Positions 6,478 to 56,714 of a stretch of 64,000 nucleotides of DNA are shown here, one piece after another. The notes below the pieces were generated by a model. That model ran no database searches. It was not told the DNA's origin and worked only from the letters and a program-made list of their open reading frames with translations. A program made the translations under genes and the position numbers. Each line of letters starts with the position of its first letter. The stretch's first letter is position 1. This DNA comes from an uncultured Eubacteriales bacterium (lineage in GTDB: Bacteria; Bacillota_I; Bacilli_A; RF39; UBA660), in contig ONTJ01000002.1 in the NCBI GenBank assembly GCA_900320735.1, positions 3,259 through 67,258 of the forward strand. Reading direction: 5' to 3'.

Positions 6478-6529
6478 ATATTTACATATAATAATATTTG
6501 TGTTAATATTTATTTGTAAATCGAATAAA

Positions 6530-6712
6530 AGACATGATTATTTAATTAATATTTCAAAGAGAACTAGTGATGGTGGAATACTAGTAAATATATTAAGTAA
6601 TTACTACTTTTAAGAGGAGTTAATAGCTCACGGGTGACACCGTTATCAAATTAAGTTAAATAAAGGATGGTACCGCCTAATATGGCTCCTTAAGATACCA
6701 TCTTTTTTTATT
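6530..6712 (+). promoter_or_regulatory. T-box riboswitch leader of thrS. It has an AGAGA stem-I element, the T-box sequence AAAGGATGGTACCGCC at 6662-6677, and a terminator (GGATGGTA...TACCATC + T7) ending at 6709.
   Basis: The canonical T-box/antiterminator sequence overlaps an intrinsic terminator; the aminoacyl-tRNA synthetase gene follows directly. Confidence 0.75.
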
Positions 6713-13373: not shown

Positions 13374-13953
13374 TGATATTGAAAAAGAAATATTTGACGA
13401 ATTATATAGAGATTATATTAATGATTTTATAAAGGATTATATATATGATAATAGAAATATAATTAGTAAATATAGTATATTAGAAATAGAATATAATATA
13501 GATGGTACTAAAAAAGATATATATTCACTTGCTTCTGAGAGAGATATAAAAAAAGTTCAAATAACTGCAGATAAAAATGAGTTGGACTATAAATTTAGTC
13601 AAAATATTATTAAAGAAGATGAATATAATAATAAGATAGATGAAATAAATAATAAAATTAAAAATATAAATTTATTATATGATGATTTAATATTTGATAT
13701 TATAAATAAATATGATATAGAAAAAATAACAAAATCTATTTTGCAATATAATTTAAACAATATAGATTTAGATAGATTAGCGCGTGCTATTTCTTCAGTT
13801 TCAGAAAATAAGATAGAAGAATTTAGAATGAATAATAAATTATTTATGTTAGATAAGATGTCTTATTGGAATTATAAGTATAATAAAATTTCAAAGGGTA
13901 TAAGTAAGGCAAGAGAAGTAGAAAGTTTTATAATTAATTTAATAAAAAATTAA
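13342..13953 (+). CDS. Hypothetical K/N/D-rich protein
   Basis: ORF with a TTG start; no recognisable motifs. Confidence 0.3.
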   Translation: MKVKVIRLKNSDIEKEIFDELYRDYINDFIKDYIYDNRNIISKYSILEIEYNIDGTKKDIYSLASERDIKKVQITADKNELDYKFSQNIIKEDEYNNKIDEINNKIKNINLLYDDLIFDIINKYDIEKITKSILQYNLNNIDLDRLARAISSVSENKIEEFRMNNKLFMLDKMSYWNYKYNKISKGISKAREVESFIINLIKN

Positions 13954-13964
13954 TTATTTTTCTT

Positions 13965-14000
13965 TTTTAGGGGAATTTATTTTATTTATAACGTATATAT
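13965..14000 (+). promoter_or_regulatory. Copy (a) of the conserved sigma-H-like promoter motif (AGGGGAATT -12- AACGTATAT), upstream of the ABC transporter
   Basis: TTTTAGGGGAATTTATTTTATTTATAACGTATATAT aligns with near-identical copies at 20404-20442 and 44976-45014. Confidence 0.45.
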
Positions 14001-14014
14001 TTTATGAAAGGAAA

Positions 14015-16303
14015 ATGATTATGTTAAAATTAGTTAATATTTGCAAAAATTATAAAACAGGTGATTTTAATCAACAAGCACTTGATAATATAAATTTATC
14101 GTTTAATGAAAATGAATTTGTATCAATATTAGGTCCATCTGGTTCTGGTAAAACGACTTTATTAAATATAATTGGGGGACTTGATAGGTATGATAGTGGT
14201 GATTTGATAATCAAGGGTAAGTCAACTAAAAAATTTAAAAACAAAGATTTCGATAGTTATAGAAATAAATCTATAGGTTTTATTTTTCAAAATTATAATT
14301 TAATTACTCACATTGACATACTTTCCAATGTTGAGATGGGTATGACATTATCTGGACTTAAAAAAAGAAAAAGAAGAAAAATAGCACTTGAATTGTTAGA
14401 AAAAGTGAATCTAAAGGAACATAGACATAAAAAACCAAATCAATTATCGGGTGGTCAAATGCAAAGAGTAGCAATTGCAAGGGCACTTTCAAATAATCCA
14501 GAAATAATACTTGCAGATGAACCGACAGGAGCGCTTGATTCATCTACAAGCACACAAATAATGAAATTGATAAAGGATATATCAAAAGATAAATTAGTAA
14601 TTATGGTAACTCATAATGAAGAACTTGCAAAAGAGTATTCAGATAGAATTATAAATATGAAGGATGGCAAAGTTATAGGTGATACACAAAAAAATACTGT
14701 CGAAGAAATTGATAAAAAATATGTACTAAATAAAACTAAGATGAAATTTTTAACCGCATTAAATTTATCATTAAATAATATTAAAACTAAAAAAGGTAGA
14801 ACATTATTAATGTCTTTTGCTTCATCCATTGGTATAATCGGAATATCACTAATACTGGCTTTATCTAATGGTTTTTCAAAACAAATAGAGAAATTTGAGA
14901 GAAATACTTCTGATGTTATGCCGATTATGATAACGCATCAAAAACAAAACGTAGAGGAAATAAAGAATGAAATTATTTCCTCGAATAAATATAAAAATAA
15001 AAAATTATATAGTGATAAAAACATCATAAATGTAACAGAAAAAAAAGAAAGTAAATATAATAATATATCAAATGAGTTTGTTTCCTATATCAAAAATATG
15101 AATCCTAATTATATGTCAAGTTTAGGATTTAATCATAGTTTGAAATTAAATCTAATTCAAAATAGTGATGATGGTTATTATATGATAGATTCTTTAGAAT
15201 TATTTAAACCATTACCGATAAGAAATTTTAATGATAAGAAAGTAAGTGAAATAATAACTAATTATTATGATTTACTATATGGAAAATTACCAACTTCATA
15301 TAATGAATTACTCTTAGAAATAGATAAATCAAATAGTATTGATGAGAATATTAAAAAAATACTTAATATAAAAGATAATGTGGTATCATTTGATCAAGTA
15401 ATTGATAAAGAAATAAAAGTAGTAAATAATGATGAATTATATAAAGAATATAATGGTAATTTTGTGATAAATAAAATCGATGAAAATATGTATAATAGTT
15501 CAAATAATATAACACTTAAAGTAGTAGGTATAATTAGAGCAAAAAAAGAAAAAGAAAATTTAATTAATTCTTCTTGCAATATATATTATAAGAATGAATT
15601 AATAGATCACGTAATAAGCAAAAATAGTAATTCCAATATAGTTAGAAAGCAAAAAGATTCTGAATATAATATTTTGACAGGTACTAAATTATCAAGTGAT
15701 GAAAAAAGACAGTTGTTAGATTATTTAGGTGACATATCAAATCCTAAATCGATTTATATATATCCTAAAAATTTTGATTCTAAAGATAAGATAGTCAAAT
15801 ATATCGAAAATTATAATAGAGGAAAAAAGGAAGATAACAAGATTTCATATTTGGATCAAGCACAGTTAATAACTAATATATCAGGTGGTATAATGAGTGG
15901 AATAACAAGTGTATTAGTTGCTTTTTCTTCAATATCTCTTATTGTATCATCCATAATGATAGGTATAATTACTTATATATCTGTTTTAGAAAGAACAAAG
16001 GAAATTGGAATATTACGCAGTTTGGGTGCTAGAAAGAAAGATATTAGAAGGGTATTTAATGCTGAAACATTTATTATTGGATTGTTTTCTGGTATTTTGG
16101 GAATACTTATATCTAGACTTTTATTGATACCTATTAATAATATATTATTTAAATTGACAGGTTTAGATAACATTGCAATTATGAATATAAAATATTCTAT
16201 TATGCTAATTATAATTAGTATTATATTGACTTTAGTAGGAGGGGCAATACCATCTAATCTAGCATCTAAGAAAGATCCAGTGCAATCTCTTAGAACAGAA
16301 TAA
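14015..16303 (+). CDS. ABC transporter with fused ATP-binding and permease domains (MacB/FtsX-type with a large extracytoplasmic domain)
   Basis: The N-terminal ABC ATPase has GPSGSGKTT, LSGGQ and DEPTGALD motifs. A roughly 400-aa extracellular region follows, then a C-terminal FtsX-like 3-TM domain. Confidence 0.8.
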   Translation: MIMLKLVNICKNYKTGDFNQQALDNINLSFNENEFVSILGPSGSGKTTLLNIIGGLDRYDSGDLIIKGKSTKKFKNKDFDSYRNKSIGFIFQNYNLITHIDILSNVEMGMTLSGLKKRKRRKIALELLEKVNLKEHRHKKPNQLSGGQMQRVAIARALSNNPEIILADEPTGALDSSTSTQIMKLIKDISKDKLVIMVTHNEELAKEYSDRIINMKDGKVIGDTQKNTVEEIDKKYVLNKTKMKFLTALNLSLNNIKTKKGRTLLMSFASSIGIIGISLILALSNGFSKQIEKFERNTSDVMPIMITHQKQNVEEIKNEIISSNKYKNKKLYSDKNIINVTEKKESKYNNISNEFVSYIKNMNPNYMSSLGFNHSLKLNLIQNSDDGYYMIDSLELFKPLPIRNFNDKKVSEIITNYYDLLYGKLPTSYNELLLEIDKSNSIDENIKKILNIKDNVVSFDQVIDKEIKVVNNDELYKEYNGNFVINKIDENMYNSSNNITLKVVGIIRAKKEKENLINSSCNIYYKNELIDHVISKNSNSNIVRKQKDSEYNILTGTKLSSDEKRQLLDYLGDISNPKSIYIYPKNFDSKDKIVKYIENYNRGKKEDNKISYLDQAQLITNISGGIMSGITSVLVAFSSISLIVSSIMIGIITYISVLERTKEIGILRSLGARKKDIRRVFNAETFIIGLFSGILGILISRLLLIPINNILFKLTGLDNIAIMNIKYSIMLIIISIILTLVGGAIPSNLASKKDPVQSLRTE

Positions 16304-16326
16304 AACGCAGTTAATTGCGTTTTTTA
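16304..16326 (+). terminator. Intrinsic terminator after the ABC transporter (AAACGCAGTTAATTGCGTTTTTT)
   Basis: Perfect hairpin followed by a T-run. Confidence 0.7.
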
Positions 16327-16382
16327 TTTTATATTTGAATAAATTGCCATTTTAAACACAAAAGTATGTTGAAGGTGAAAAA

Positions 16383-17159
16383 ATGGCAAAGAATAAAGTA
16401 GAAATAACAGGAATTAAGACTAGTAGTTTAAAAGTGTTAACGAATGAAGAACAAATTGAATTATTTAATAAAATGAAAAATAATGATTCAAAAGCAAGAG
16501 ATGAACTTATTAATGGTAATTTAAAACTTGTATTGAGTATTTTAAAAAAATTTATTAATAGATGTGATAATATGGATGATTTATTTCAGATAGGATGTAT
16601 AGGATTAATTAAGGCAATAGATAATTTTGATTTATCTTATAATGTTAAATTTTCTACATATGCAGTTCCAATGATTGTTGGCGAAGTTAAAAGACATCTT
16701 AGGGATGATAGTATGATAAGAATATCTAGAAGTGTTAAAGATATTGCATACAAAACATTAAAAGCAAAAGAACAATATATGATTGAATATGGTAGAGAAG
16801 CTACGATTGAGGAACTATCAAAGATAATAGGAGTAGATGAATTAGATATTATTTGTTCACTTGAAGCTACTAAACAGACTATTAGTATATTTGAACCAAT
16901 ATATGATGATGGTGGTGAAATAATATATTTATTTGATCAAATAAAAAATCCAAATGAAGAAAATTCAAATTGGAATAATAGAATAATGCTAAAATCCGCA
17001 ATAGAAAAATTGAAATTGAAAGAACGATTTATAATATACCAGAGATATCTTATTGGAAAAACTCAAATGGAAATAAGTGATGAACTTGGAATCAGTCAAG
17101 CACAGGTTTCACGAATAGAAAAAAATGCATTAAATAATGTAAAGCGTTTAATTAAATAA
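16383..17159 (+). CDS. sigG: Sporulation sigma factor of the SigG/SigF type
   Basis: Near-colinear with B. subtilis SigG: MxxNKVEIxG...GNLRLVLS...DDLFQxGCIGLxKxIDNFDLS..KFSTYAVPMIxGExxRxLRD...ISQAQVSRxEK. Confidence 0.8.
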   Translation: MAKNKVEITGIKTSSLKVLTNEEQIELFNKMKNNDSKARDELINGNLKLVLSILKKFINRCDNMDDLFQIGCIGLIKAIDNFDLSYNVKFSTYAVPMIVGEVKRHLRDDSMIRISRSVKDIAYKTLKAKEQYMIEYGREATIEELSKIIGVDELDIICSLEATKQTISIFEPIYDDGGEIIYLFDQIKNPNEENSNWNNRIMLKSAIEKLKLKERFIIYQRYLIGKTQMEISDELGISQAQVSRIEKNALNNVKRLIK

Positions 17160-20324: not shown

Positions 20325-20403
20325 TAATATAGATTAGTCATTATATTTTTAAATTTAGTGTAAAAATGTAAAAAAAGTGTCAAAAATGATACTTTTTTTA
20401 ATA

Positions 20404-20442
20404 TTTTAGGGGAATTTGTTTTGTTTACAGCGAATATATATA
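20404..20442 (+). promoter_or_regulatory. Copy (b) of the sigma-H-like promoter motif (AGGGGAATT -12- AGCGAATAT), upstream of dnaG-sigA
   Basis: Matches the sigma-H consensus RnAGGAwWW-N11-12-RnnGAATww. The B. subtilis sigA operon is known to have a sigma-H-dependent promoter. Confidence 0.5.
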
Positions 20443-20458
20443 TTGGAAGTGGTTTTTT

Positions 20459-22189
20459 ATGCCAAATAATTTATCTTATGAGGAAATTATAAGTTTACAG
20501 AGAAAGACAAATATTGTAGATATAATTAGAGATTATGTTCCACTTACACAAAAGGGCAAGAATTATTTTGGTGTTTGCCCATTTCACGATGATCATAATC
20601 CATCGATGAGTGTCTCTTCTGATAAACAAATATATAAGTGCTTTGTATGTGGTAATTCAGGTAATGTGTTTAATTTTGTTATGGAATATGAAAAAGTTTC
20701 TTTTATGGAGGCTGTTAAGATTGTTGCAGACAAAGTTGGAGTTGACTTAAACATCAATATAGTAAAAAATAAAAATATCCAAAATAAGAATAATAGATTA
20801 TATGATATATATGATATTGCATGTAAGTTTTATCAAAATAATTTGAATACTGCATATGGTAAAGTTGCTAAAAAATATTTGAGTGATAGAAAGATAACTG
20901 ATGAAGTTATAAAAGAATTTAATATTGGATTATCACTTTCAGATACGGAATTATATAATATTTTAAAAAGCAAAGGGTTTGATGATAATGAGATAGTTGA
21001 ATCTGCTGTAGGCGTGAAAAATGGTAACCATGTCTATGATTTATATAAAAATAGGATAATGTTTCCTCTTTCTAATTTAGATGGTGATGTAGTTGGCTTT
21101 TCTGGAAGAATTTATGACAATTCAAGTGAAAGTAAATATATAAATACGAAAGAAACAAAAATATTTAAAAAAGGTGAGTTACTATATAACTACGTTAGTG
21201 CAAAAACATATGCCAGAAAAGAAAAACAAATAATAGTGGTTGAAGGGTTTATGGATGTCATTAGACTTAGTACTATAGGAATAAGAAATGTAGTTGCTAC
21301 GATGGGAACTGCGGTTACTAAAAATCAAGCTTCTCTTATTGAAAAACTTGCACCTAATATAATTTTAATGTTTGATGGTGATGAAGCTGGAAATAAAGCA
21401 ACTAAATCATATATTGATAATTTTTCGTATGATCAAGATAATATAAAAATTGTAAGATTAGAAGATAATTTAGATCCTGATGAATATATATTAAAATATG
21501 GAAAAGAAAAAATGGAATATCATTTAACCCATCCAATAAATATGTATGAATATAAAATATCAGATTTTAAAAAAAATATGGATTTTAATGATAGTAAGAA
21601 AGTATCTCAATATATAAATTTGGTTATACCAGAGATTGAAAAAATAGATGATGATATCATTAGAGATCTTGAAATAAATAAATTATCTAAATTGACAAAT
21701 GTAGATAAATCAATAATAGTTTCAAAAATAAAATTTAAAGATACTAATGATGTAAAAATGAATAAGAAAGAAATAAAAATGACAAAATATGAAAAAGCTT
21801 CAAAATTTATAATATATAGTATGATTCATAGTAATGAAGCAATAATTAATTATTTTAATAATCTATCTTATTTACCAGATGATAAAGATAGGATGCTTGC
21901 TAATGACATTGTATTATTTTATAAAAAATTTAATGGCTTTAATATAAATGATTTTATAACGTATATATCTGATAAAAAAGATTTGATAAATTTAATTATA
22001 GAAATTGATGAATTAGATGTGAAGAATTCAAATGATTCACTTGATGATTATTTTGATACAATAAGAGAATATCAATATACAAATCAAATAATGAAATTGA
22101 CTAATGAATTAAAAAATGAAACCAATATAATAAAAAGAAAAGAAATAGCTCAAAAAATAGTTGAACTTAAGATGAAGGAGAGTAAGTAA
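20459..22189 (+). CDS. dnaG: DNA primase
   Basis: Zn-binding [10 protein letters not shown]...CFVCG, TOPRIM domain (EGFMDV, DGDEAG). Confidence 0.9.
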
Positions 22190-22190
22190 T

Positions 22191-23288
22191 ATGAATGAAA
22201 TAAAAACTTTTGATGAAAGAAAAGAAGATTTATTAAAATTAGGAAAGAAAAATGGATATTTAACATTTGAACAACTTGCGGATGCTCTAAAAGGATTAGA
22301 GATGGATGCAGAAAGTTTAGATAATTTATATAATTTTTTAAATGAAAATAGCATTGATGTAGTTGCGGATTCTGAAATGGATGATGAAGGAAATCAAGAT
22401 GGCGGTGAATCAGTTGATGATTTATTAAATGAAGATTTAACATTACCAAAAAATCTAAGTATAAATGATCCTGTTAGAATGTACTTAAAAGAAATTGGTA
22501 AGATATCACTATTATCACTTGATGAGGAATTAGAACTTTCTAAGAAAATTGAGGAAGGTGACGAAGCAGCAAAAGCTAAACTTGCTGAATCTAATTTGCG
22601 TTTAGTAGTTTCAATTGCAAAAAGATATGTTGGTAGAAATTTATCTTTCTTAGATTTAATACAAGAAGGAAATATTGGCCTTATGAAAGCAGTAGATAAA
22701 TTTGATTCGTCAAAAGGATATAAATTTTCTACATATGCGACTTGGTGGATTAGACAAGCTATAACAAGAGCAATCGCAGATCAAGCTAAGACAATAAGAG
22801 TACCAGTTCACATGGTTGAAACAATAAATAAATTAAAAAGAGTTCAAAGACAAATGACACTTGAACTTGATAGAGAACCAACAGATGAAGAATTAAGTAA
22901 AGCACTTGGAATGCCTGAAGATAAGATAAGAGAAATTATAAAAATATCTCTTGATCCATTGTCACTAGAAACTCCAATTGGTGAAGAAGAAGATTCTCAC
23001 TTAGGAGATTTTGTTGAAGATAAATCTTCATTAAGTCCAGAAGAATATGCAATTAATGAAGTGTTGAAAGATGAAATTTCAGAATTATTATTAACACTTA
23101 CTGAAAGAGAAGAACAAGTTATTAAACTTAGATTTGGTTTGATTGATGGTACTTGTAGAACTCTAGAGGAAGTAGGTACTATATTTGGAGTTACAAGAGA
23201 AAGAATTAGACAAATTGAAGCAAAAGCACTTAGAAAACTTCGTCATCCATCTAGAAGTAAAAAATTAAAGGATTATTTGGTGGATTAA
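22191..23288 (+). CDS. sigA: RNA polymerase sigma factor SigA (RpoD)
   Basis: Regions 1.2 to 4.2 are visible ([44 protein letters not shown]...). Confidence 0.95.
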
Positions 23289-24332: not shown

Positions 24333-24361
24333 TGATATAGAATAGGTGGTAGGTGATTAGA

Positions 24362-26077
24362 GTGAAGAAAATACTAACTAGCTTATATGATGGTTTTATT
24401 TTTATTATAACACTTCCTTTTAATTTATTTAAGTATGCAAATTTGGCGTTCTATTATGTCATAAAAATATTGCTTAAAGAATCTCCTGAAAAGGAAAAAA
24501 TTAGAAGAGAAAAAGAAGCACAAAGACAAGCTGAGATTGATAAAGAGAAGAAACAAGCTGTCGAATATCTTAAAAATCAAAATGATGAATTAAAATTTGG
24601 CCGTGGTACTACTAAAGAACAAAAAAAAGAACACGAATTAACGAGACAAGAAAAACGTGAACAACATAGGTTAGCAAAAGAAAAAGTAAGAAGAGAAAAA
24701 CTAAGACAAAAAGAAGAAGAAAAGAAAGAACATAAAAACTTATTCAAACAATTACTTAGTAGAAATGTTTTTTCAAGAAGAAGACAACAAAAATTAGATC
24801 AAAAAAGAAAAATTCTTAGTATGGATATAACTGCTGCTGATGCTAAGAGAAGCAGTGAAAAAATGATATTTAGGTATGTTGGTAAAAATCCTAAAGGAAA
24901 AATAGAAAAAGGCGAATTTCAAGGATATTCAAAACTAGATGTACATTCATATTTACTTAGTGAGGGATATGAAGTATATGAGATTACTGCTAAGGCTAAG
25001 GCAAATATATTTAATACTGATATTGGTTTAAATAGACCAATGAAAAAATCAGTGTTAGTATTTTATTTAACACAATTGTCTACATATCTAAAAGCGGGTA
25101 TACCAATTGTAGATTCGATAAAGTTACTAACTAATCAATCTAAATCAAGAACTGAGCAAACAATATGGAAATCGGTTGTATATGAACTTACAATGGGTTC
25201 AACACTTTCAGATGCCATGTATAGATGTGGAAATAATGTATTTCCTAAATTACTTATTAACATGATAAAAACAGCTGAAATGACAGGAAACTTACCTGAA
25301 GTTTTAGATGAACAAGTAGAATATTATAGAGCAATAGAAAAATCTAGAAAAGAAATGGTAAATGCCATGATGTATCCTATATTTGTATTAATATTTGCAG
25401 TTGGTATAGTTATGTTTATAATGATAAAAGTAATTCCACAATTTGTAAGTATATATGATGCAATAGATGCTGAATTACCAAAAATAACTCAGGTGTTAAT
25501 ATCCGTGAGTACATTTATTAGAAATAATATATTGATGATATCATTAATAACAATTGTAGTTATAGTAATGTTTATATTGTTATATACTAGAAATGTATTA
25601 TTTAAAGCAAGAGTACAAAATATATTAATGCATATACCTGTATTCGGTCAAATAATAATTTATAATGAAGTTACAATGTTTACAAAAACATTTTCAACAT
25701 TACTAAGTAATAATATATTTATTACAGATAGTATGGATATATTAAGTAGAATCACAGATAATGAAATTTATAAAGGTATAATATATGATGCTGTTGATTG
25801 CTTATCTAGAGGTGAAGCACTATCTGAGGCTTTTAATGAACAATGGGCTTTCCCAGATATAGCATATCAAATGATAGTAACAGGTGAAAAGACAGGGCAA
25901 CTTGCAACTATGATGGAAAAAGTTTCTGATTATTATCAAGAAGAACACTTTAATGCAATATCAAGGATAAAAGCTATGGTAGAACCAATATTAATTATAT
26001 TCTTGGCTGTTGTTGTTGGTGGTATATTATTAGCAGTAATAATACCAATGTTTAGTATGTATAACAATATAATGTAG
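24362..26077 (+). CDS. Type II secretion / type IV pilus platform protein (GspF/PilC/ComGB family) carrying a roughly 170-aa N-terminal extension. The extension is a hydrophobic helix followed by a K/E/R-rich low-complexity region.
   Basis: A canonical PilC N-domain begins near MIFRYVGKNPKGKIEKGEF. It is followed by two T2SSF repeats and three TM segments. Confidence 0.8.
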   Translation: MKKILTSLYDGFIFIITLPFNLFKYANLAFYYVIKILLKESPEKEKIRREKEAQRQAEIDKEKKQAVEYLKNQNDELKFGRGTTKEQKKEHELTRQEKREQHRLAKEKVRREKLRQKEEEKKEHKNLFKQLLSRNVFSRRRQQKLDQKRKILSMDITAADAKRSSEKMIFRYVGKNPKGKIEKGEFQGYSKLDVHSYLLSEGYEVYEITAKAKANIFNTDIGLNRPMKKSVLVFYLTQLSTYLKAGIPIVDSIKLLTNQSKSRTEQTIWKSVVYELTMGSTLSDAMYRCGNNVFPKLLINMIKTAEMTGNLPEVLDEQVEYYRAIEKSRKEMVNAMMYPIFVLIFAVGIVMFIMIKVIPQFVSIYDAIDAELPKITQVLISVSTFIRNNILMISLITIVVIVMFILLYTRNVLFKARVQNILMHIPVFGQIIIYNEVTMFTKTFSTLLSNNIFITDSMDILSRITDNEIYKGIIYDAVDCLSRGEALSEAFNEQWAFPDIAYQMIVTGEKTGQLATMMEKVSDYYQEEHFNAISRIKAMVEPILIIFLAVVVGGILLAVIIPMFSMYNNIM

Positions 26078-26088
26078 AAGGAGTATGT

Positions 26089-26898
26089 ATGGACGTATTA
26101 ATTTATAGTATATTTATATTTATAATAGGTTTATGTTTTGGTTCATTCTTCAATGTAGTTGGATATAGATTACCTAATAATATGTCTATAATTTTTCCTT
26201 CTTCACATTGTCCAAAATGTAATCATAAATTAGGAAAATTGGAATTAATTCCAGTATTATCGTATATTATTCAAGGTGGTAGATGTAAACACTGTAAGAG
26301 TAAGATATCAATATTTTATCCAATATTTGAGATATTAACTGGAATTTTATTTGTACTATGTTATTTATCGTATAAAGACATGTATCCAGAATTATTAAAT
26401 ATAATATATAGCATAGTATTTTCATCTGCTATGGTAATAATAATGATTAGTGATTTTAAATACATGATAATCCCAGATGAAGTATTAGTATTTTCATCTG
26501 TAGTATTGATTATCTTAAAATTATGTATCTTATATAAGATCGAAATGATAACTTCATTTATGGATTTTGGTTATGAAATAATATTTATGCTGAAGGATGC
26601 ATTAATTATTTTTATAATAATGTATTTAATAAGAGCATTTGGCAATTTAATTTTCAAGAAAGATTCAATGGGTGGGGGAGATATAAAAATGATGGCTTTC
26701 ATCGGATTAGTTCTTGGATGGAAGTTATCTGTAGTAGTGATATTTTTAGGAGCATTTTTGGCACTTCCATTATCAATATTAAATGTATACAGAAAAAATG
26801 AACATATGCTTCCATTTGGGCCTTACTTAGCTCTAGCGTCACTTATATTATTATTGAGTAAAGTAGACTTTAATATGATATTAGAATTATTAAAATAA
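26089..26898 (+). CDS. Prepilin peptidase (A24 family, PilD/ComC)
   Basis: N-terminal tetracysteine (CPKC...CKHC), polytopic membrane topology, GGGDIKMM catalytic-region motif. Confidence 0.85.
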   Translation: MDVLIYSIFIFIIGLCFGSFFNVVGYRLPNNMSIIFPSSHCPKCNHKLGKLELIPVLSYIIQGGRCKHCKSKISIFYPIFEILTGILFVLCYLSYKDMYPELLNIIYSIVFSSAMVIIMISDFKYMIIPDEVLVFSSVVLIILKLCILYKIEMITSFMDFGYEIIFMLKDALIIFIIMYLIRAFGNLIFKKDSMGGGDIKMMAFIGLVLGWKLSVVVIFLGAFLALPLSILNVYRKNEHMLPFGPYLALASLILLLSKVDFNMILELLK

Positions 26899-26900
26899 AA

Positions 26901-26925
26901 AAAGACACAATTGTGTCTTTTTTTT
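26901..26925. terminator. Bidirectional terminator (AAAGACACAATTGTGTCTTT + T-run) between the convergent pilD and ATPase genes
   Basis: Perfect 8-bp palindromic stem with flanking A/T runs. Confidence 0.75.
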
Positions 26926-28165
26926 ACTCTTGAATTTGCTCTTCGTTAGTTTCAGTATTTTTTTCAATAACTATATCTTCAACATCTAATTCAATTAGTT
27001 TTATTATTTCTTCAAAAGTAGTAAGGCCAGTTGATACTTTTATTAAACCATCTTGAAGTAGTGTCTTAACTCCAGATTTATATACCAATTGTCTTAATTC
27101 ATCTTTTTTCATGCTATTTGATATTGCATCTCTAATATCTTCATTTATTGCTAGTACTTCGTGAATTGCAATACGACCACTATAACCATTCATACAGTGT
27201 TCACATCCATCTCCAGCAATATATATTTCATTTAAATCAATACCTAGATTTTTTTTGAATAAATGCTTTTGATATTGGTTGGTTTGTATTTTTTTTCTAC
27301 AATATGGACATAATTTCTTAGCAAGTTTTTGTGATATAATTCCAGATAGAGAAGCCGCAAGTAAATATCTTTCAACATCCATATCAAGAAGTCTTTCAAT
27401 AGTATTAAGTGAGTCGTTTGTGTGTAGTGTAGATAATACTAAGTGCCCAGTTACAGATGCTCTAACTGCAATTCTTGCAGTTTCATCATCACGAATTTCA
27501 CCGATCATAATTATATCTGGGTCTTGTCTTAATATAGATCTAAGTACATTAGCAAATGTAAGTCCAATTTCACTACTAACTTGTACTTGGTTAATTCCAG
27601 GTAAATCCATTTCAACTGGATCTTCAACAGTTATAATATTCGATTCTTCTTTATTTAATCTTTGTAAAATGGAATAAACTGTTGTTGATTTACCAGTACC
27701 AGTTGCACCAGTTGTAAGTATTATGCCGTTTGGTAAACTAATCATTTTAATTATTTTTTCATAATTTTCTTTAGTGAATCCTAATTTTTCAAGTCCTTGA
27801 ATACTCATAGAGTAATCTAATATACGAATAACTATTTTTTCTCCACCGTTTGTAGGAAGAGAAGATACACGCATATCTAAAGGAACCCCATTTAATGAGG
27901 TTTTAATTGCACCATCTTGAGGTAATCTATTTTCGGTAATATTCATACCAGAAATTATTTTGACTCTTGTTACTAAGTTTCTTTTGTATTCATTTGGTAT
28001 TATACAATAATCTATTAATGAGCCATCAATTCTTATTCTTACTTTTAAATTTTGCTCAGATGGGTCGAAATGGATATCACTTGCTCTATTTTTAGTTGCG
28101 TCTATGATAATTTCATTAACTATTTCAACAATTGGAAGTTTTTCAAATTCAAATGTTTTTAGCAT
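26924..28165 (-). CDS. Type IV filament assembly ATPase (GspE/PilB/ComGA family, short 413-aa form)
   Basis: Walker A GATGTGKST, Asp and His boxes, C-terminal tetracysteine CPYC...CEHC; GAGGT RBS. Confidence 0.85.
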   Translation of the reverse strand: MLKTFEFEKLPIVEIVNEIIIDATKNRASDIHFDPSEQNLKVRIRIDGSLIDYCIIPNEYKRNLVTRVKIISGMNITENRLPQDGAIKTSLNGVPLDMRVSSLPTNGGEKIVIRILDYSMSIQGLEKLGFTKENYEKIIKMISLPNGIILTTGATGTGKSTTVYSILQRLNKEESNIITVEDPVEMDLPGINQVQVSSEIGLTFANVLRSILRQDPDIIMIGEIRDDETARIAVRASVTGHLVLSTLHTNDSLNTIERLLDMDVERYLLAASLSGIISQKLAKKLCPYCRKKIQTNQYQKHLFKKNLGIDLNEIYIAGDGCEHCMNGYSGRIAIHEVLAINEDIRDAISNSMKKDELRQLVYKSGVKTLLQDGLIKVSTGLTTFEEIIKLIELDVEDIVIEKNTETNEEQIQE

Positions 28166-28277
28166 ATTTTCAACCTCATTTATTCCTTTTTATAAAAAAT
28201 ACGATTATACTCTAGTATTTTTTCTAAAATTATTATATAATATTTTTGTAATAATATCAAGGGTAAGGTGTAATAAA

Positions 28278-28772
28278 ATGTTAAAATCTAAAAAGGGTTA
28301 TTTACTTACAGAATCTATAATTGCTATTACAGTAGTTGCTACAATAATTACAATAGTATATGCAATTATTGTAAAAAATTTAATAAGACAAAATAATGAA
28401 ATTACTAAAAATAACACGTCATATGGCATGTATATTTTAAAAGAGGTTAGAAAATATTATCTTGATAATGAAATAGAATTCGATGATGATTTGCAAAATA
28501 CAAGTCGTGATTATTTGAATATTACTTCGGATGGGCCTGAATTTTTAAATAATATAAATGTACATAGATTATACTTTTTAAAATATGACAAAATAGATGA
28601 ATTAATTTTAAGAGAAAAAATACCATATAGTGTCAAGAAAGAACTAAAAGAAATTGATTCAAGCGATCAAGCATGCAAATATAGATACTTACTTATATTT
28701 AAAGAAAAAAATGCTGATGCAAAATTATTTGATTATAGTTATGCTACTTTAGGTGCAGATTGTAGCAAGTAG
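28278..28772 (+). CDS. Type IV pilin-like protein (164 aa) with a class III signal MLKSKKG|YLLTESIIAITVV (Glu at +5)
   Basis: Prepilin-type N-terminus followed by a short globular domain; the start is reassigned to the ATG that has an AAGGTG RBS. Confidence 0.65.
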   Translation: MLKSKKGYLLTESIIAITVVATIITIVYAIIVKNLIRQNNEITKNNTSYGMYILKEVRKYYLDNEIEFDDDLQNTSRDYLNITSDGPEFLNNINVHRLYFLKYDKIDELILREKIPYSVKKELKEIDSSDQACKYRYLLIFKEKNADAKLFDYSYATLGADCSK

Positions 28773-28781
28773 GAGTTGAAA

Positions 28782-38242: not shown

Positions 38243-39169
38243 ATGATCAAAAAATTTAGTATTAAAAAGATATGTAAATATACAATGCTTTTATTGGTGG
38301 TTTTCTTATTTTATCTATTTCCTAAGAAAAATGAATATGAACTTACAAATACTGTTATTAAAAATCATAGGTTAAACTATCATGATGTTTTTTTACTTGA
38401 CAGAAATAATTATTTATCAAAAATCACTATAGAAGTTGCAGCAAAAAATGAGCTGGATTTAATTGATGAATTAATTGAAATTATGAAGGAAGATGGCAGA
38501 TATATAGATAAAATACCAAATGGTTTTAGACCATTTTTACCATCAGATTTAAAAATAAATTCAAAGAAAATAAAAAATGACATACTGATTATTAATTTTT
38601 CAAATGAATTGCTAAAAGGAAATATCCAGGATGAAGAGAGAATAGTAGAGGGACTTATATATACACTTACATCAATTAAAAATATTAAAAAGGTTAAAAT
38701 ATTAATAGATGGTGAAGAATTAAAAAAACTTCCAAAATCGGGTAAAGAATTAGATGAATATCTAAAAAGAGATTTTGGGATAAATAAAGTGTATAATATT
38801 GAAAATTTAAAAGATATAACTAAAGTAATAGTATATTATGTTTCAAAAAATAATGATAATATATATTATATTCCTGTTACAAAATATATAAATTCATCAG
38901 AAGAAAAAATAAAAATAATTATTGATGAACTTACAAGTAAAATGTCTTATAATAGTGATTTAATGAGTTATTTAAACTATAATGCAAAGCTACTTAACTA
39001 TAATTTTAATAACGACAGCATAACATTAAATTTTAACGAATATTTATTTGATAATGAAGTAAATAAAAAAGTATTAGAAGAGGTAATATATAGTATTTCA
39101 TACTCAATAAAAGATAATTATGGTGTCAGTAAAATTAATTTTTGTGTAAATAATACAGAAATTAGATAA
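38243..39169 (+). CDS. GerM-like protein with two GerMN domains and an N-terminal membrane anchor
   Basis: Two repeats of the pattern ...YF/YYV...NNYL/NIYYIPV...ELL/ELTS...LNFS/LNFN, consistent with GerMN domains. Confidence 0.4.
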   Translation: MIKKFSIKKICKYTMLLLVVFLFYLFPKKNEYELTNTVIKNHRLNYHDVFLLDRNNYLSKITIEVAAKNELDLIDELIEIMKEDGRYIDKIPNGFRPFLPSDLKINSKKIKNDILIINFSNELLKGNIQDEERIVEGLIYTLTSIKNIKKVKILIDGEELKKLPKSGKELDEYLKRDFGINKVYNIENLKDITKVIVYYVSKNNDNIYYIPVTKYINSSEEKIKIIIDELTSKMSYNSDLMSYLNYNAKLLNYNFNNDSITLNFNEYLFDNEVNKKVLEEVIYSISYSIKDNYGVSKINFCVNNTEIR

Positions 39170-44403: not shown

Positions 44404-44961
44404 ATGAATAAATATTTAAAATGGTTAATTATAGTTGTACCATTTATATTAGTATTAATTTTTATAACAATTGCACTTTTATTGTCTAATAAGGAAGAAG
44501 AAGTAAAAATTATAAATAAAGAATTCGTAACTAAGGATGGTAGAGTTACTTTTTCTGCAGATGCGAAATATGTTAGCAGTGATAAGGGGGAGTATGACTT
44601 ATATTTAAATAAAGACAAAAAACAAATTGTGGGTATATTTACATATAATTTAAGTGAATATGAAGAGAAAACAGATAAAGAAATATTAGACAAACAAGTA
44701 GGAGGATTTATTGAAAGTAGAAAAAATACTACTTTATTAAAAAAGGAAAGTACCATAGAAATGGATGATAAGAAAATAACAAAAATAGAATATTCTGGTA
44801 AAACAGATAAATCATCTGAATGTGTATACATTTTTTCTGTTATTACTTTTACAAATGATCCAAATTACGTAATATATGTGAATGAAGTTATACTTAAAAG
44901 TAATTACGAAAAAAATATTTCAGAAATGATCAGTATATTAAAGAGCGCAAAACTAAATTAA
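44404..44961 (+). CDS. Membrane-anchored hypothetical protein (N-terminal TM, extracytoplasmic domain)
   Basis: Hydrophobic N-terminus WLIIVVPFILVLIFITIALLL. Confidence 0.35.
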   Translation: MNKYLKWLIIVVPFILVLIFITIALLLSNKEEEVKIINKEFVTKDGRVTFSADAKYVSSDKGEYDLYLNKDKKQIVGIFTYNLSEYEEKTDKEILDKQVGGFIESRKNTTLLKKESTIEMDDKKITKIEYSGKTDKSSECVYIFSVITFTNDPNYVIYVNEVILKSNYEKNISEMISILKSAKLN

Positions 44962-44975
44962 TTTTAGTTTTTTTT

Positions 44976-45014
44976 ATTTTTTAGTGGAATTTTCATTTTT
45001 ATAGCGAATATATA
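44976..45014 (+). promoter_or_regulatory. Copy (c) of the sigma-H-like promoter motif (AGTGGAATT -11- AGCGAATAT), upstream of the C39/ABC exporter
   Basis: TTTTTAGTGGAATTTTCATTTTTATAGCGAATATATAT aligns with copies (a) and (b). Confidence 0.45.
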
Positions 45015-45035
45015 TAGTAGGAGGGTAAAATAAAA

Positions 45036-47039
45036 ATGAAATTTGTAAAACAACAAAATGAAAAAGATTGTGCTGTTGCATGTCTTTATAACATAATTAG
45101 ATATCATAAAGGTTATGTTGATATGGACAAGCTTAGAGTTAAGTTAAAAACAAACAAAGATGGTACAAGTGTGTATGATATTGTAAAGGTGAGTAATGAA
45201 ATTGGTTTTCAATCAGATGCTTATGAATGTGAGCTGAATAACTTGATTGACGTCAAATTACCAATAATTGCACACATAAAATTAAATAATATATATGACC
45301 ATTTTGTAATAGTTTATAAAATTGTTGATTATGATGTTTATATATTTGATCCAATACGTGGGTATATAAAACTTCAAATGGAAGAATTTGAAAATACATG
45401 AACAGGTATAATAATAACTTTTAATAAGATAAATAATATTTTAAAAGAAAAAAATAAATTTATTAGTATTTTATATTCTGGTATTAAAAAATATTATAAA
45501 ATTATTTTTTTAGTATTATTTTTATCCTTATTATCAACCATACTTTCCATTATTCACTCTCTATATTTAAGCTATTTGTTTGATAGTAAGTTTAATTATT
45601 CTAATGTGTTTATATTATTTTTAATTATATGTGTTCTAAAGATTGTATTGGATTATATTAGAAATAATCTCATATTAACACTTAACATAAAGTTTGACAG
45701 TAGTCTTACAAATAAAACGTTTAAAAATATTTTATCTCTCCCTCTTTTATATCATCATAATAGGCCAGTTGGTGATATAGTATCTAGAATAAATGATTTA
45801 TCTAGTATAAAAGAGTTCATAAATAATATTAGTTTTTCTTTTATAATTGATTTTGCGTATATATTTATCATTAATATCATATTGTTATCTATTAATAAAT
45901 TAATGTTTTTAATAACTCTTATTATGGAATTTTTGTATATGTTAATTTATTTATTATGTAGGAGGAATTTAGATAAATTGTCATATGTTGTTAAAAACAA
46001 TGCATCTATTTCAAACAGTTATTTAGTAGAAAGTATTTTGGGTATAGATACGATCAAAAATTTTTCTATTGAGGATAAGAGAAATACTGAATTTAAAAAA
46101 GTATATAAAAAATTTTTGCTAAGTAGTAAGAAAATTAGTAAATTAGTATTTAATTATAGTTTATTTCAAGAATTAGTTTGTAATCTCTCTAGTATTTTGT
46201 GTATATATATTGGTTTTATTTTGTTATACAAAAATTCTTTATCATTAAGTAAATTAATATGTTTTAATTCATTAGTTATTTCGTTATTCATATCATTTAA
46301 AAATATAATTTCTCTTGATCAATTAGTTATAGATGCTAAAAATTCTTATAAGAGAATCATTGAATTAAATAAAGTCAAAGGACATAAACATTATAGAAAG
46401 ATAAATCAAGTTAACACAATAAGATTTAATAATGTTAGTTATTCATATAATGGCGTGTATAACATTATTAATAATATAAATTTTGCTATCAAAAAGGGTG
46501 AATATGTATTTGTAAAAGGTAGTAGTGGTTCGGGTAAATCTACCATATTTAAACTACTTATGAAAATATTAGAATGTGATAATGACATGATTAAGATAAA
46601 TGATATTGATGTAAATAATATATCATATAGTGATATTACTAATAATATTTGTTTTGTTTCACAAAATGAATATATTTTTACGGATTCTATACTTAATAAT
46701 ATAAGATTATTTAAAGAAGTATCAGATGAAGATATTCAAAAAGTTATAAGGATTACTAATATTGATAACATTCTAAAAAAAAGAAACATAACATTAGACT
46801 TTCTTTTAGAAGAAAATGGCCATAATTTATCTGGAGGTGAAAGACAAAGAATAATACTTGCAAGAGCATTGCTTCAAAATAAAGAAGTATTAATACTCGA
46901 TGAAACAATGAATGAATTAGATATTGAAAGTGAAAGAAAAATTATACAAAAAATAAAAACTGAATACAATTTAACATTGATATTAATTTCACACAGATTC
47001 AGTAATAATGATTTATTTGAAAAAGTTGTGCAAGTATAA
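45036..47039 (+). pseudogene. Bacteriocin/competence-type ABC exporter with an N-terminal peptidase C39 domain, interrupted by one in-frame TGA (45399-45401) between the C39 domain and the first TM helix. It is either a disrupted gene or is expressed as two pieces.
   Basis: C39 signature QQNEKDCAVACLYNIIRYHKG plus the His region HFVIVY. The frame continues without further stops through 45402-45575 into the TMD plus ABC ATPase (GSSGSGKST, LSGGERQR, LDETMNELD). Confidence 0.7.
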
Positions 47040-47045
47040 AAAAAT

Positions 47046-47186
47046 ATGAGAAAATTAAGTGAAGAGGAAATGTTAAGTACAAAAGCAGGTGGAATATCTG
47101 CGATTACATGGGCTATAATTAGCGCAGCACTATCTTTTTTTGGAGGATTTTTAGATGGTTATACAAGACCATATAAATGTAGATAG
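47046..47186 (+). CDS. Bacteriocin-like precursor peptide 1 (46 aa). It has a double-glycine leader MRKLSEEEMLSTKAGG and the predicted mature peptide ISAITWAIISAALSFFGGFLDGYTRPYKCR.
   Basis: Unannotated small ORF 6 nt after the exporter stop. The leader fits the LSxxELxxIxGG pattern; the mature part is hydrophobic and cationic with Gly motifs. Confidence 0.55.
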   Translation: MRKLSEEEMLSTKAGGISAITWAIISAALSFFGGFLDGYTRPYKCR

Positions 47187-47195
47187 GAGGTATAT

Positions 47196-47363
47196 GTGAA
47201 GAAAATAAATGAAGATAAAATGAAATCTATAAAAGCCGGCGCTGGTATTACAGGTACCTTAATTAATTCAATTTTACGAGCTGTAAATATATTTAGTGAT
47301 GCTGGCCGTTATTTTGGTTCGTCAATTCGAAGAATTTTTTCAAAAAATTTATGTAGATTTTAG
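47196..47363 (+). CDS. Bacteriocin-like precursor peptide 2 (55 aa; GTG start after AGGAGG). Leader MKKINEDKMKSIKAG(A/G); cationic mature peptide with GxxxG (AGRYFG).
   Basis: Second small ORF 9 nt downstream of peptide 1, followed by a strong terminator at 47371-47395; an AGGAGG RBS precedes it. Confidence 0.45.
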   Translation: MKKINEDKMKSIKAGAGITGTLINSILRAVNIFSDAGRYFGSSIRRIFSKNLCRF

Positions 47364-47395: not shown

Positions 47396-47499
47396 TTTTA
47401 AAGTTATATTATATATTGACAAATAAAAAAAGTAAGTAATATTAGTATTGCTATTAATTATTATATTTGATATAATAATTACAGAAATTCGTTGATTAT

Positions 47500-47680
47500 G
47501 TAGAGTAATTATTGATTATTTATAAGAGAGTTAGTGGTTGGTGTAAACTAATAATAATTTATAATGAAAGTGCTGACATATGAGAAGGTTATTAAACCCG
47601 GGGCAACTCGTTATTTAATTAAGAAAAATAAAGGATGGTACCGCCTAATATGGCTCCTTAATATACCATCTTTTTATTTT
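47500..47680 (+). promoter_or_regulatory. Second T-box riboswitch leader, with the T-box sequence at 47630-47646 and terminator stem GGATGGTA...TACCATC + T-run ending at 47675. A candidate GCU (Ala) specifier lies in ...GAAAGTGCTGAC...
   Basis: AGAGAG stem-I element and T-box sequence. The 41-nt block (T-box plus 5' terminator half) is identical to the thrS leader copy; the 3' half of the stem differs at one position. The alaS operon lies downstream. Confidence 0.7.
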
Positions 47681-47695
47681 GAAAGGAATGATATT

Positions 47696-48235
47696 TTGAA
47701 TAAGATAGTAGCAATTGTAGGTATGTGTGGTTCGGGTAAATCTGTTGCTACGGAAATACTTGAAAATAAATTAGGATATAAAAAAGTGTATTTTGGTGGT
47801 GTGACAATGGAAAAATTAAATGAGTCACATTTAAAGATAACACCCGAAAATGAAAAAATGATGAGAGAAAAACTAAGACGAGAATATGGAAATGGTGCAT
47901 TCGCCAAGATCTTACTTCCTCGAATAAAAGAGCTTTCTGCTAGTAATAATGTCGTACTAGACGGATTATATTCATGGGAGGAATATACACTATTAAAAGA
48001 GAAACTTGATAATATTATTTTGGTGGCTATAGTAGTGGATAAAGATATAAGATATGATAGATTATCGAAAAGAAAGATAAGACCTCTTACAAAAGAAGAA
48101 GCAATTAAAAGAGATATTTCAGAAATTGAAAATATTGCAAAGGCAGGTCCAATCGCGTATGCAGATTATTATGTTATAAATAATGATGATATAGAAAAAT
48201 ATGAAGAAAGATTATTAGAAATAGTAGGTGATTAA
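47696..48235 (+). CDS. P-loop nucleotide/nucleoside kinase-like protein (179 aa; TTG start). It may be a dephospho-CoA-kinase-like AAA-domain protein.
   Basis: Walker A VGMCGSGKS at the N-terminus and a small-kinase-like architecture; located between the T-box leader and alaS. Confidence 0.45.
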   Translation: MNKIVAIVGMCGSGKSVATEILENKLGYKKVYFGGVTMEKLNESHLKITPENEKMMREKLRREYGNGAFAKILLPRIKELSASNNVVLDGLYSWEEYTLLKEKLDNIILVAIVVDKDIRYDRLSKRKIRPLTKEEAIKRDISEIENIAKAGPIAYADYYVINNDDIEKYEERLLEIVGD

Positions 48236-56642: not shown

Positions 56643-56714
56643 TTTATTATTTCTTTTTTTTTGACTATTTTTTTGTTTTGTGGTAATATACTCCGCAATA
56701 AAAGAGGGATTTTG

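Follow-up and report, generated by a model that had tools for sequence, protein, structure and literature searches.

Putative SigH-type promoters ahead of dnaG-rpoD, a MacB-like transporter gene and a peptide-export operon in an RF39-like gut bacterium

Promoters read by the alternative sigma factor SigH, including those at dnaG-sigA, are well-known textbook elements. In Bacillus subtilis they follow the consensus RNAGGAWWW-N11/12-RNNGAATWW (quoted in PMC8510167) and, as the original prediction stated, the dnaG-sigA operon of this species is indeed served by SigH promoters, two in number (PMC2824700). The experimentally defined SigH regulon of Listeria monocytogenes includes yqxD-dnaG-rpoD, comEABC, comG, coiA and lytG (PMC4754846), and the core SigH targets of C. 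difficile include spo0A, spoIIA, spoVG, spoVS, ftsZ and minC (PMC7438776; Saujet et al. 2011). In streptococci, the relative of the Bacillota SigH is ComX/SigX; in pneumococcus, rpoD is induced up to 10-fold in competence, and a ComX site at rpoD was not found (PMC6560143).

The window, that is, the whole stretch of 64,000 nt that was analysed, has a GC content of about 25%. Three near-identical copies of a promoter-like motif had been proposed in it, and all three were found on the + strand at the positions given for them. Their near-identity holds fairly well, the exceptions being GTAT in place of GAAT in copy 2 and some differences in copy 3. The -10 element put forward at that time, AGCGAATAT, is exact in copies 1 and 3, with AACGTATAT standing in its place in copy 2. 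The elements of the three copies and the structures preceding them are as follows.

20408..20437, + strand: promoter core of copy 1, ahead of dnaG (sequence, pattern and matrix scans)
20408-20416, + strand: -35 box of copy 1, AGGGGAATT (sequence)
20429-20437, + strand: -10 box of copy 1, AGCGAATAT, 12-nt spacer from the -35 box (sequence)
20445-20452, + strand: SD sequence of copy 1, GGAAGTGG, with the dnaG ATG at 20459
20369..20400, + strand: hairpin and U-run immediately before copy 1 (fold -12.9 kcal/mol, z = -7.5)
13969..13998, + strand: promoter core of copy 2, ahead of a MacB-like ABC gene (sequence)
13969-13977, + strand: -35 box of copy 2, AGGGGAATT (sequence)
13990-13998, + strand: -10 box of copy 2, AACGTATAT, 12-nt spacer (sequence)
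13930..13957, + strand: weak A+T-only hairpin and T-run upstream of copy 2 (-5.1 kcal/mol, z = -2.6)
44983..45011, + strand: promoter core of copy 3, ahead of a C39-peptidase ABC exporter (sequence)
44983-44991, + strand: -35 box of copy 3, AGTGGAATT, T for G within the G-run
45003-45011, + strand: -10 box of copy 3, AGCGAATAT, 11-nt spacer, one base shorter than in copies 1 and 2
45020-45025, + strand: SD sequence of copy 3, GGAGGG, with the ATG at 45036
44949..44971, + strand: weak hairpin and U-run upstream of copy 3 (-5.7 kcal/mol, z = -1.9)

All copies are intergenic, are on the same strand as the genes behind them and lie 14–26 nt upstream of the start codons; the ATG behind copy 2 is at 14015 or, more likely, at 14021. 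Transcription from copy 1 is predicted to start at about 20443-20444 by analogy with mapped C. difficile SigH promoters. The hairpin at 20369..20400 is likely the terminator of the upstream 408-aa gene, which was missed by a consensus terminator scan because its stem is A+T-rich. Since each copy is preceded by a hairpin with a U-run, every one of them heads a transcription unit.

Just upstream of the dnaG motif, at about 20357-20385 and partly overlapping the upstream hairpin, TGTAAAA/TGTCAAA boxes are repeated. Such boxes recur upstream of dnaG in the related loci L001, L003, L006, L014, L025, L030 and L039, and may serve as the site of a regulator; their sequence is reminiscent of the Spo0A box, TGTCGAA.

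The identities originally assigned to the genes behind the copies (DnaG, RpoD, a MacB-like fused ABC protein and a C39-peptidase ABC exporter) proved correct with NCBIfam models.

20459..23288, + strand: dnaG-rpoD operon behind copy 1 (NCBIfam)
20459-22189, + strand: dnaG (NCBIfam DnaG, 435 bits; cut-off 283.6)
22191-23288, + strand: rpoD/sigA (RpoD C-terminal model, 390 bits; cut-off 354)
14015..16303, + strand, probable start 14021: MacB-like fused ABC ATPase/FtsX-type permease, 762 aa (NCBIfam)
16297-16330, + strand: hairpin and T-run after the MacB-like gene (fold)
45036..47363, + strand: copy 3 operon, exporter and two small ORFs (NCBIfam, frame analysis)
45036-47039, + strand: C39-peptidase ABC exporter, a single frame with an in-frame TGA at 45399-45401
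47046-47186, + strand: small ORF of 46 aa directly after the exporter
47196-47363, + strand: small ORF of 55 aa, next in line

Both small ORFs carry leaders of the double-glycine type (MRKLSEEEMLSTKAGG|... and MKKINEDKMKSIKAGAG...), and one of them gave a weak, sub-threshold match (E = 0.067) to the lactococcin G-beta/enterocin 1071B family of two-peptide bacteriocins. The TGA codon in the exporter gene lies in the context ..EEFENT*TGIII.., at the position where ComA-type transporters presumably have a conserved Trp. Reading with genetic code 4 was rejected, as TGG is used for Trp 63 times in this genome and long genes are intact; TGA serves as a gene stop in 1 of 28 cases. The exporter TGA is thus either a nonsense mutation, making a pseudogene, or a leaky stop.

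Two T-box leaders were also recognized in the window, one before thrS (6515-6693; 55.7 bits, E = 1e-11) and the other before an AAA_18 gene/alaS (47483-47661; 78.5 bits, E = 1.5e-17), both scoring below the Rfam gathering score. They account for a 102-nt direct repeat (6611-6712 / 47579-47680), and they imply a true start near 47696 for the ORF called at 47564.

The three copies were compared with the B. subtilis consensus and with 38 C. difficile promoters whose output falls in a sigH mutant and whose start sites are mapped (PMC7438776, Table 3). All copies fit the consensus with at most one mismatch per box. The -35 boxes AGGGGAATT and AGTGGAATT each deviate from RNAGGAWWW at the third position; the -10 box of copies 1 and 3 is a perfect RNNGAATWW, and that of copy 2 has one mismatch. 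The spacers between the 9-nt boxes measure 12, 12 and 11 nt, so that GG and GAAT are 20/21 nt apart in all copies, the same distance as in 35 of the 38 C. difficile promoters. With a matrix built from the C. difficile sites only (training range 9.5–23.6), copy 1 (15.1) ranked third and copy 3 (14.7) fourth of 128,000 window positions, scores that are not significant by themselves because the maximum in shuffled windows averages 16.9. The two higher matches were a coding-region match and a ribosome-binding site, and copy 2 was outside the top 25 of the window.

Chance likeness of A+T-rich intergenic DNA, or descent from small-repeat remnants without function, has to be considered in a genome of 25% GC, in which low-information matrices give many matches, the more so as the window copies resemble one another in the T-rich spacer as well. 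Against it, the 37-nt consensus of the original prediction, searched with up to three mismatches, found copies 1 and 2 only, where shuffled sequences gave an expectation of 0.00, and the 128 kb made up by the two strands of the window contain AGKGGAATTT three times and no more, once per copy. A two-block weight matrix was then trained on the sites upstream of dnaG in relatives. In Markov-shuffled sequence it gave about one match of at least 20 per 1.57 million positions, or about 0.08 per window; in approximately 0.79 Mb of related sequence, 24 such matches were obtained versus 1.0 in the shuffled controls. Besides dnaG sites, the only strong matches were copies 3 and 2 of the window (26.2 and 21.2), located 22 and 14 nt before the start codon of the next gene. 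With few exceptions, strong matches lay between genes, pointed the same way as the gene that follows and were 11–25 nt from its start codon. With orientation and distance to start codons this strict, and with both boxes kept down to 40% DnaG identity while the spacer drifts, an origin by chance is highly improbable. In the 64-kb window, no motif was detected before the pilus/pseudopilus cluster, sigG or other genes.

The DnaG relatives (72-40% identity) come from uncultured gut and rumen "Bacilli", "Tenericutes" and Clostridium sp. CAG:433, which we take to belong to the RF39-like group (GTDB). About 22 of them keep both boxes ahead of dnaG, in the form of AGGGGAATT or AAAGGAAAT followed by nGAATAT, CGTATAT or TATAAT. 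The commonest -35 box in relatives, AAAGGAAAT, is a perfect match to RNAGGAWWW. In the dnaG sites of 22 relatives, GG and the G of GAAT stand 20 or 21 nt apart, and the sequence of the spacer drifts freely. In an alignment anchored on the dnaG start codon (21 relatives), the G/A/T of the -35 box and the ATA of the -10 box are invariant and the spacer is variable, with the -35 box forming the most conserved part of the motif. The variants seen in the window recur among relatives: the GTAT form of the -10 box (as in copy 2) precedes dnaG in L011, L040 and L042, and the AGTGGAATT form of the -35 box (as in copy 3) is found at dnaG in L006 and at many metagenome sites. The -35 box was also considered as the ribosome-binding site of a small upstream ORF, and this was rejected, given a variable spacer with no conserved start codon.

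A different kind of signal stands at the same place before dnaG in L026, L033-35, L038 and L056, namely a canonical TTGCAA-17-TAAAAT. The presence of a sigma-A promoter at this site in other relatives argues that the motif belongs to another promoter class, and that the two are evolutionary alternatives at this position. In the window, no convincing sigma-A promoter was found between the upstream hairpin and the dnaG ATG. Because dnaG-rpoD is essential and only this promoter is seen, either the factor reading it is active in growth, or read-through or internal promoters exist; this layout is evidence against a strictly stationary-phase switch.

As the main alternative, the copies might be activator-dependent sigma-A promoters, in which the conserved TTAGGGGAATTT would be a transcription-factor site overlapping the -35 region, with a TATAAT-like hexamer in GAATATAAT/GAATATATAT as the element recognised by sigma-A. 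At many sites, TATAAT or TATAAn does stand 3 nt behind the G of GAAT, the -10 of relatives L027-L029 is a perfect TATAAT, and copy 3 contains a weak TTTTCA-17-TATAGT match (9/12). However, copies 1 and 2 lack a sigma-A-like -35 element at 16–18 nt, and a scan with TTGACA-16/18-TATAAT returned only chance-level 9/12 matches, none of which overlapped these two copies. Sigma-A specificity is normal in this genome, as shown by TTGACT-17-TAATAT at 56661-56689. Moreover, the conserved G of GAAT falls outside the sigma-A hexamer, and the TATAAT-like hexamer shifts by 1–3 nt among lineages, whereas the GG-to-G distance is fixed at 20/21. The -35 box is neither a dyad nor a direct repeat, unlike most activator sites, and the box sequences equal those of proven SigH promoters. 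An activator-dependent sigma-A promoter is therefore an unlikely reading, even if sigma-A may contribute through the TATAAT-like hexamers contained in the A+T-rich -10 regions.

Taken with the fit to the consensus, the spacing, the C. difficile geometry and the conservation before dnaG, all of which support the sigma-H assignment made in the original prediction, the three copies are probably promoters for an alternative sigma factor of the SigH family, a reading from sequence that we hold with a probability of roughly 70%. The consensus sequences of SigF/G, SigE/K, SigB, SigD and SigI do not fit the motif. Nor does it correspond to the streptococcal ComX cin-box, TACGAATA: CGAATA is shared, but a strongly conserved -35 box is present.

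Another alternative sigma factor, either forespore SigG/SigF or an unrelated group-4 sigma of SigH-like specificity, would also have to be weighed. A gene for a SigG-like factor adjoins the copy 2 operon, SigK genes are present in relatives, and phmmer searches of the window and about 200 related and metagenome loci, with RpoD and SigH as queries, yielded RpoD, SigG and SigK only, with no sigH-like gene. Set against this, SigF/SigG sites (GnATA-N15-18-CAnnnTA/GGnnAnAnTA) as well as SigE/SigK sites do not suit the GGAAT...GAAT boxes and their spacing, recA, comEA and dnaG-rpoD are genes of neither the forespore nor the mother cell, and the hairpin with a T-run between the MacB gene and sigG indicates that sigG is probably a separate transcription unit. 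Transcription by such a factor is very unlikely.

The search for a SigH gene of this lineage was extended to databases. The B. subtilis SigH query (408 bits on NF006148; 99-100% identical to database entries) returned only Bacillus, and representatives at 50% identity, together with a profile of ten A+T-biased matches, returned generic SigH of Clostridia and Bacilli, neither search reaching this lineage. Low-GC SigH-like metagenome genes were found, among them L202 (24% GC) and L203 (rlmB-yacP-sigH), and the five low-GC SigH contexts inspected showed neither a link to this lineage nor the motif. The supplement of PMC10868615 contains no sigH entry. As a side observation, a 31% GC metagenome contig (L201 679-1356) has a SigH-like gene adjoining yacP with an in-frame TGA, given as Trp in the database reading, which suggests a code-4 (Mollicutes-like) organism still encoding SigH.

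Further copies of the motif ahead of genes were found by the wider search of relatives' loci and low-GC metagenome contigs. Metagenome contigs were scanned with the pattern TTTAGKGGAATTTN{13,14}GWATA, which requires a G-rich -35 box, and at least 120 loci were obtained. Among the matches listed, 35 of 58 on contigs below 30% GC were followed within 55 nt by an SD sequence, a start codon and an ORF of at least 60 aa, and 2 of 62 on higher-GC contigs were; the low-GC matches had T-rich DNA upstream. On viral contigs, none of the 19 matches had this context, which counts against a chance origin of the motif; a phage link was rejected, the viral matches being of the chance type only.

The low-GC contigs carried the motif before dnaG many times (among the matches listed), before comEA, with a weaker site before comEA in L042, and about 200 nt upstream of recA (553 bits). 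It was also located before a helicase IV/UvrD-like gene, a YhcG/DUF1016 PD-(D/E)XK nuclease gene, an ORF6N gene and a gene for a surface protein of 637 aa that combines Flg_new repeats with an M23 peptidase domain. The ATG of the helicase gene is 9 nt after GAAT, where a SigH-type start site would fall, so its mRNA is likely leaderless. At L108 4455-4700 (also in L093 and L097), three signals are stacked upstream of recA: a distal motif, a proximal TTGATT-17-TATAAT and a LexA-box-like GAACAAATGTTT (GAAC-N4-GTTT). As recA has its own sigma-A-type promoter, the distal motif has the layout of an extra, condition-specific input. At these loci, the gene after recA is helicase IV-like and has its own copy of the motif. 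The MacB homologue in L018 is preceded by GGGAAATT-N-TATAAT in the same geometry, which lends weak support, from sequence, to a MacB-type target common to the window and this relative.

The expectation that copies of the motif are tied to sporulation onset is not supported as it stood; in relatives, the motif precedes recA, comEA, helicase, nuclease and cell-wall hydrolase genes. No sporulation-initiation gene was seen behind the motif among the matches listed, which is weak evidence because the scan was narrow and demanded a G-rich -35 box. By analogy, the regulon resembles that of Listeria SigH more than a sporulation-initiation set, and it looks like a transition-state, competence-like programme of DNA processing and antagonism.

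A non-sporulating lineage was considered and rejected in view of the SigG-, SirA-, SpoIIIAH- and GerM-like genes in the window; RF39 is predicted to form spores (PMC10868615). With sporulation genes in the organism, a link between the motif and sporulation is possible.

16383-17159: SigG-like sigma factor (354 bits on the SigG model, above the SigB/F/G subfamily cut-off)
1901-2374, 37392-37892 and 38177-39169: SirA-like, SpoIIIAH-like and Germane/GerM-like proteins

Upstream of sigG lies a GAATA...CAAAAGTA stretch, which may be a forespore-type promoter.

Building on the observed sequence match, geometry, conservation, placement and gene sets, a mechanism can be proposed for transcription from the copies, for the sigma factor involved and for the physiology. 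A SigH-family sigma in RNA polymerase would contact AGGGGAATT at -35 and RnCGAAT at -10, and transcription would start about 8–9 nt after GAAT, giving leaders of about 15–20 nt that begin at the ribosome-binding site. The active factor would raise primase and the housekeeping sigma, the MacB-type ABC pump and the peptide-export operon (C39 ABC exporter and two double-glycine peptides) together. In sister genomes, the same promoter type would drive recA, comEA, the helicase IV-like gene, the YhcG nuclease, ORF6N and the M23 wall hydrolase.

Such an arrangement suggests that peptide-toxin export is regulated jointly with genes for DNA uptake and repair and with the housekeeping initiators of transcription and replication. 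If correct, it yields a working promoter model and an initial outline of a regulon for an alternative sigma factor of a widespread, never-cultured gut lineage, and it carries SigH input to dnaG-sigA, known from Bacillus and Listeria, into a deep and fast-evolving line within the Bacilli. A broader idea, which is tentative and rather doubtful, is that in RF39-like small-genome gut Bacilli one SigH promoter type couples DNA uptake and recombination (comEA, recA, helicase, nuclease) and killing functions (C39 exporter with a two-peptide bacteriocin, MacB pump, M23 wall hydrolase) with a boost of primase and sigma-A. If true, it would imply natural transformation in this lineage.

Compared with B. 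subtilis, the promoters share their consensus and spacing with the SigH promoters P3/P4 of the sigA operon. There, the sigma-A promoters P1/P2 also lie upstream, whereas here no convincing sigma-A promoter stands beside the motif. Sporulation initiation, the centre of the B. subtilis SigH regulon, is not seen here among the matches listed.

The likeness to C. difficile includes the GG-to-GAAT distance of 20/21 nt, and its CD3221 promoter even has AGGGGAATT (PMC7438776). SigH dependence extends there to a sigA paralogue, sigA2, and to ABC transporter operons; on the other hand, its own dnaG has a sigma-A promoter, and none of its core SigH targets was found behind the motif here among the matches listed.

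In Listeria, SigH promoters have AAAGGAATT/AAAGGATTT at -35 and GGCGAAT at -10, with 11 nt between the 9- and 7-nt boxes (PMC4754846). Targets in common are dnaG-rpoD, comEA and a peptidoglycan hydrolase, and in both cases the boxes are conserved and the spacers polymorphic. In contrast to Listeria, the -35 box here is G-rich (AGGGGAATT or AGTGGAATT), the promoter is directly before dnaG with no yqxD-like gene in between, the targets also take in recA, a helicase, a nuclease and export operons of the bacteriocin type, and the comG-like pilus cluster of the window lacks the motif. This cluster (24353-31856), resembling a type IV pilus or competence pseudopilus, encodes a T2SSF protein, a prepilin peptidase, a T2SSE ATPase on the - strand and a 1026-aa protein with a prepilin N-methylation motif and Listeria-Bacteroides repeats; a sigma-A-type TATAAT and no SigH-type motif lies upstream of it.

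The streptococcal ComX cin-box/com-box is similar in its -10-centred CGAATA core and the T-rich DNA upstream, and the ComX regulon also joins comEA and recA with fratricide wall hydrolases. Fratricide functions under ComX include the two-peptide bacteriocin CibAB. The cin-box has no conserved -35 box, whereas here this is the best-kept element; if true, the coupled programme would be akin to streptococcal competence with fratricide, placed on a SigH promoter with a G-rich -35 box.
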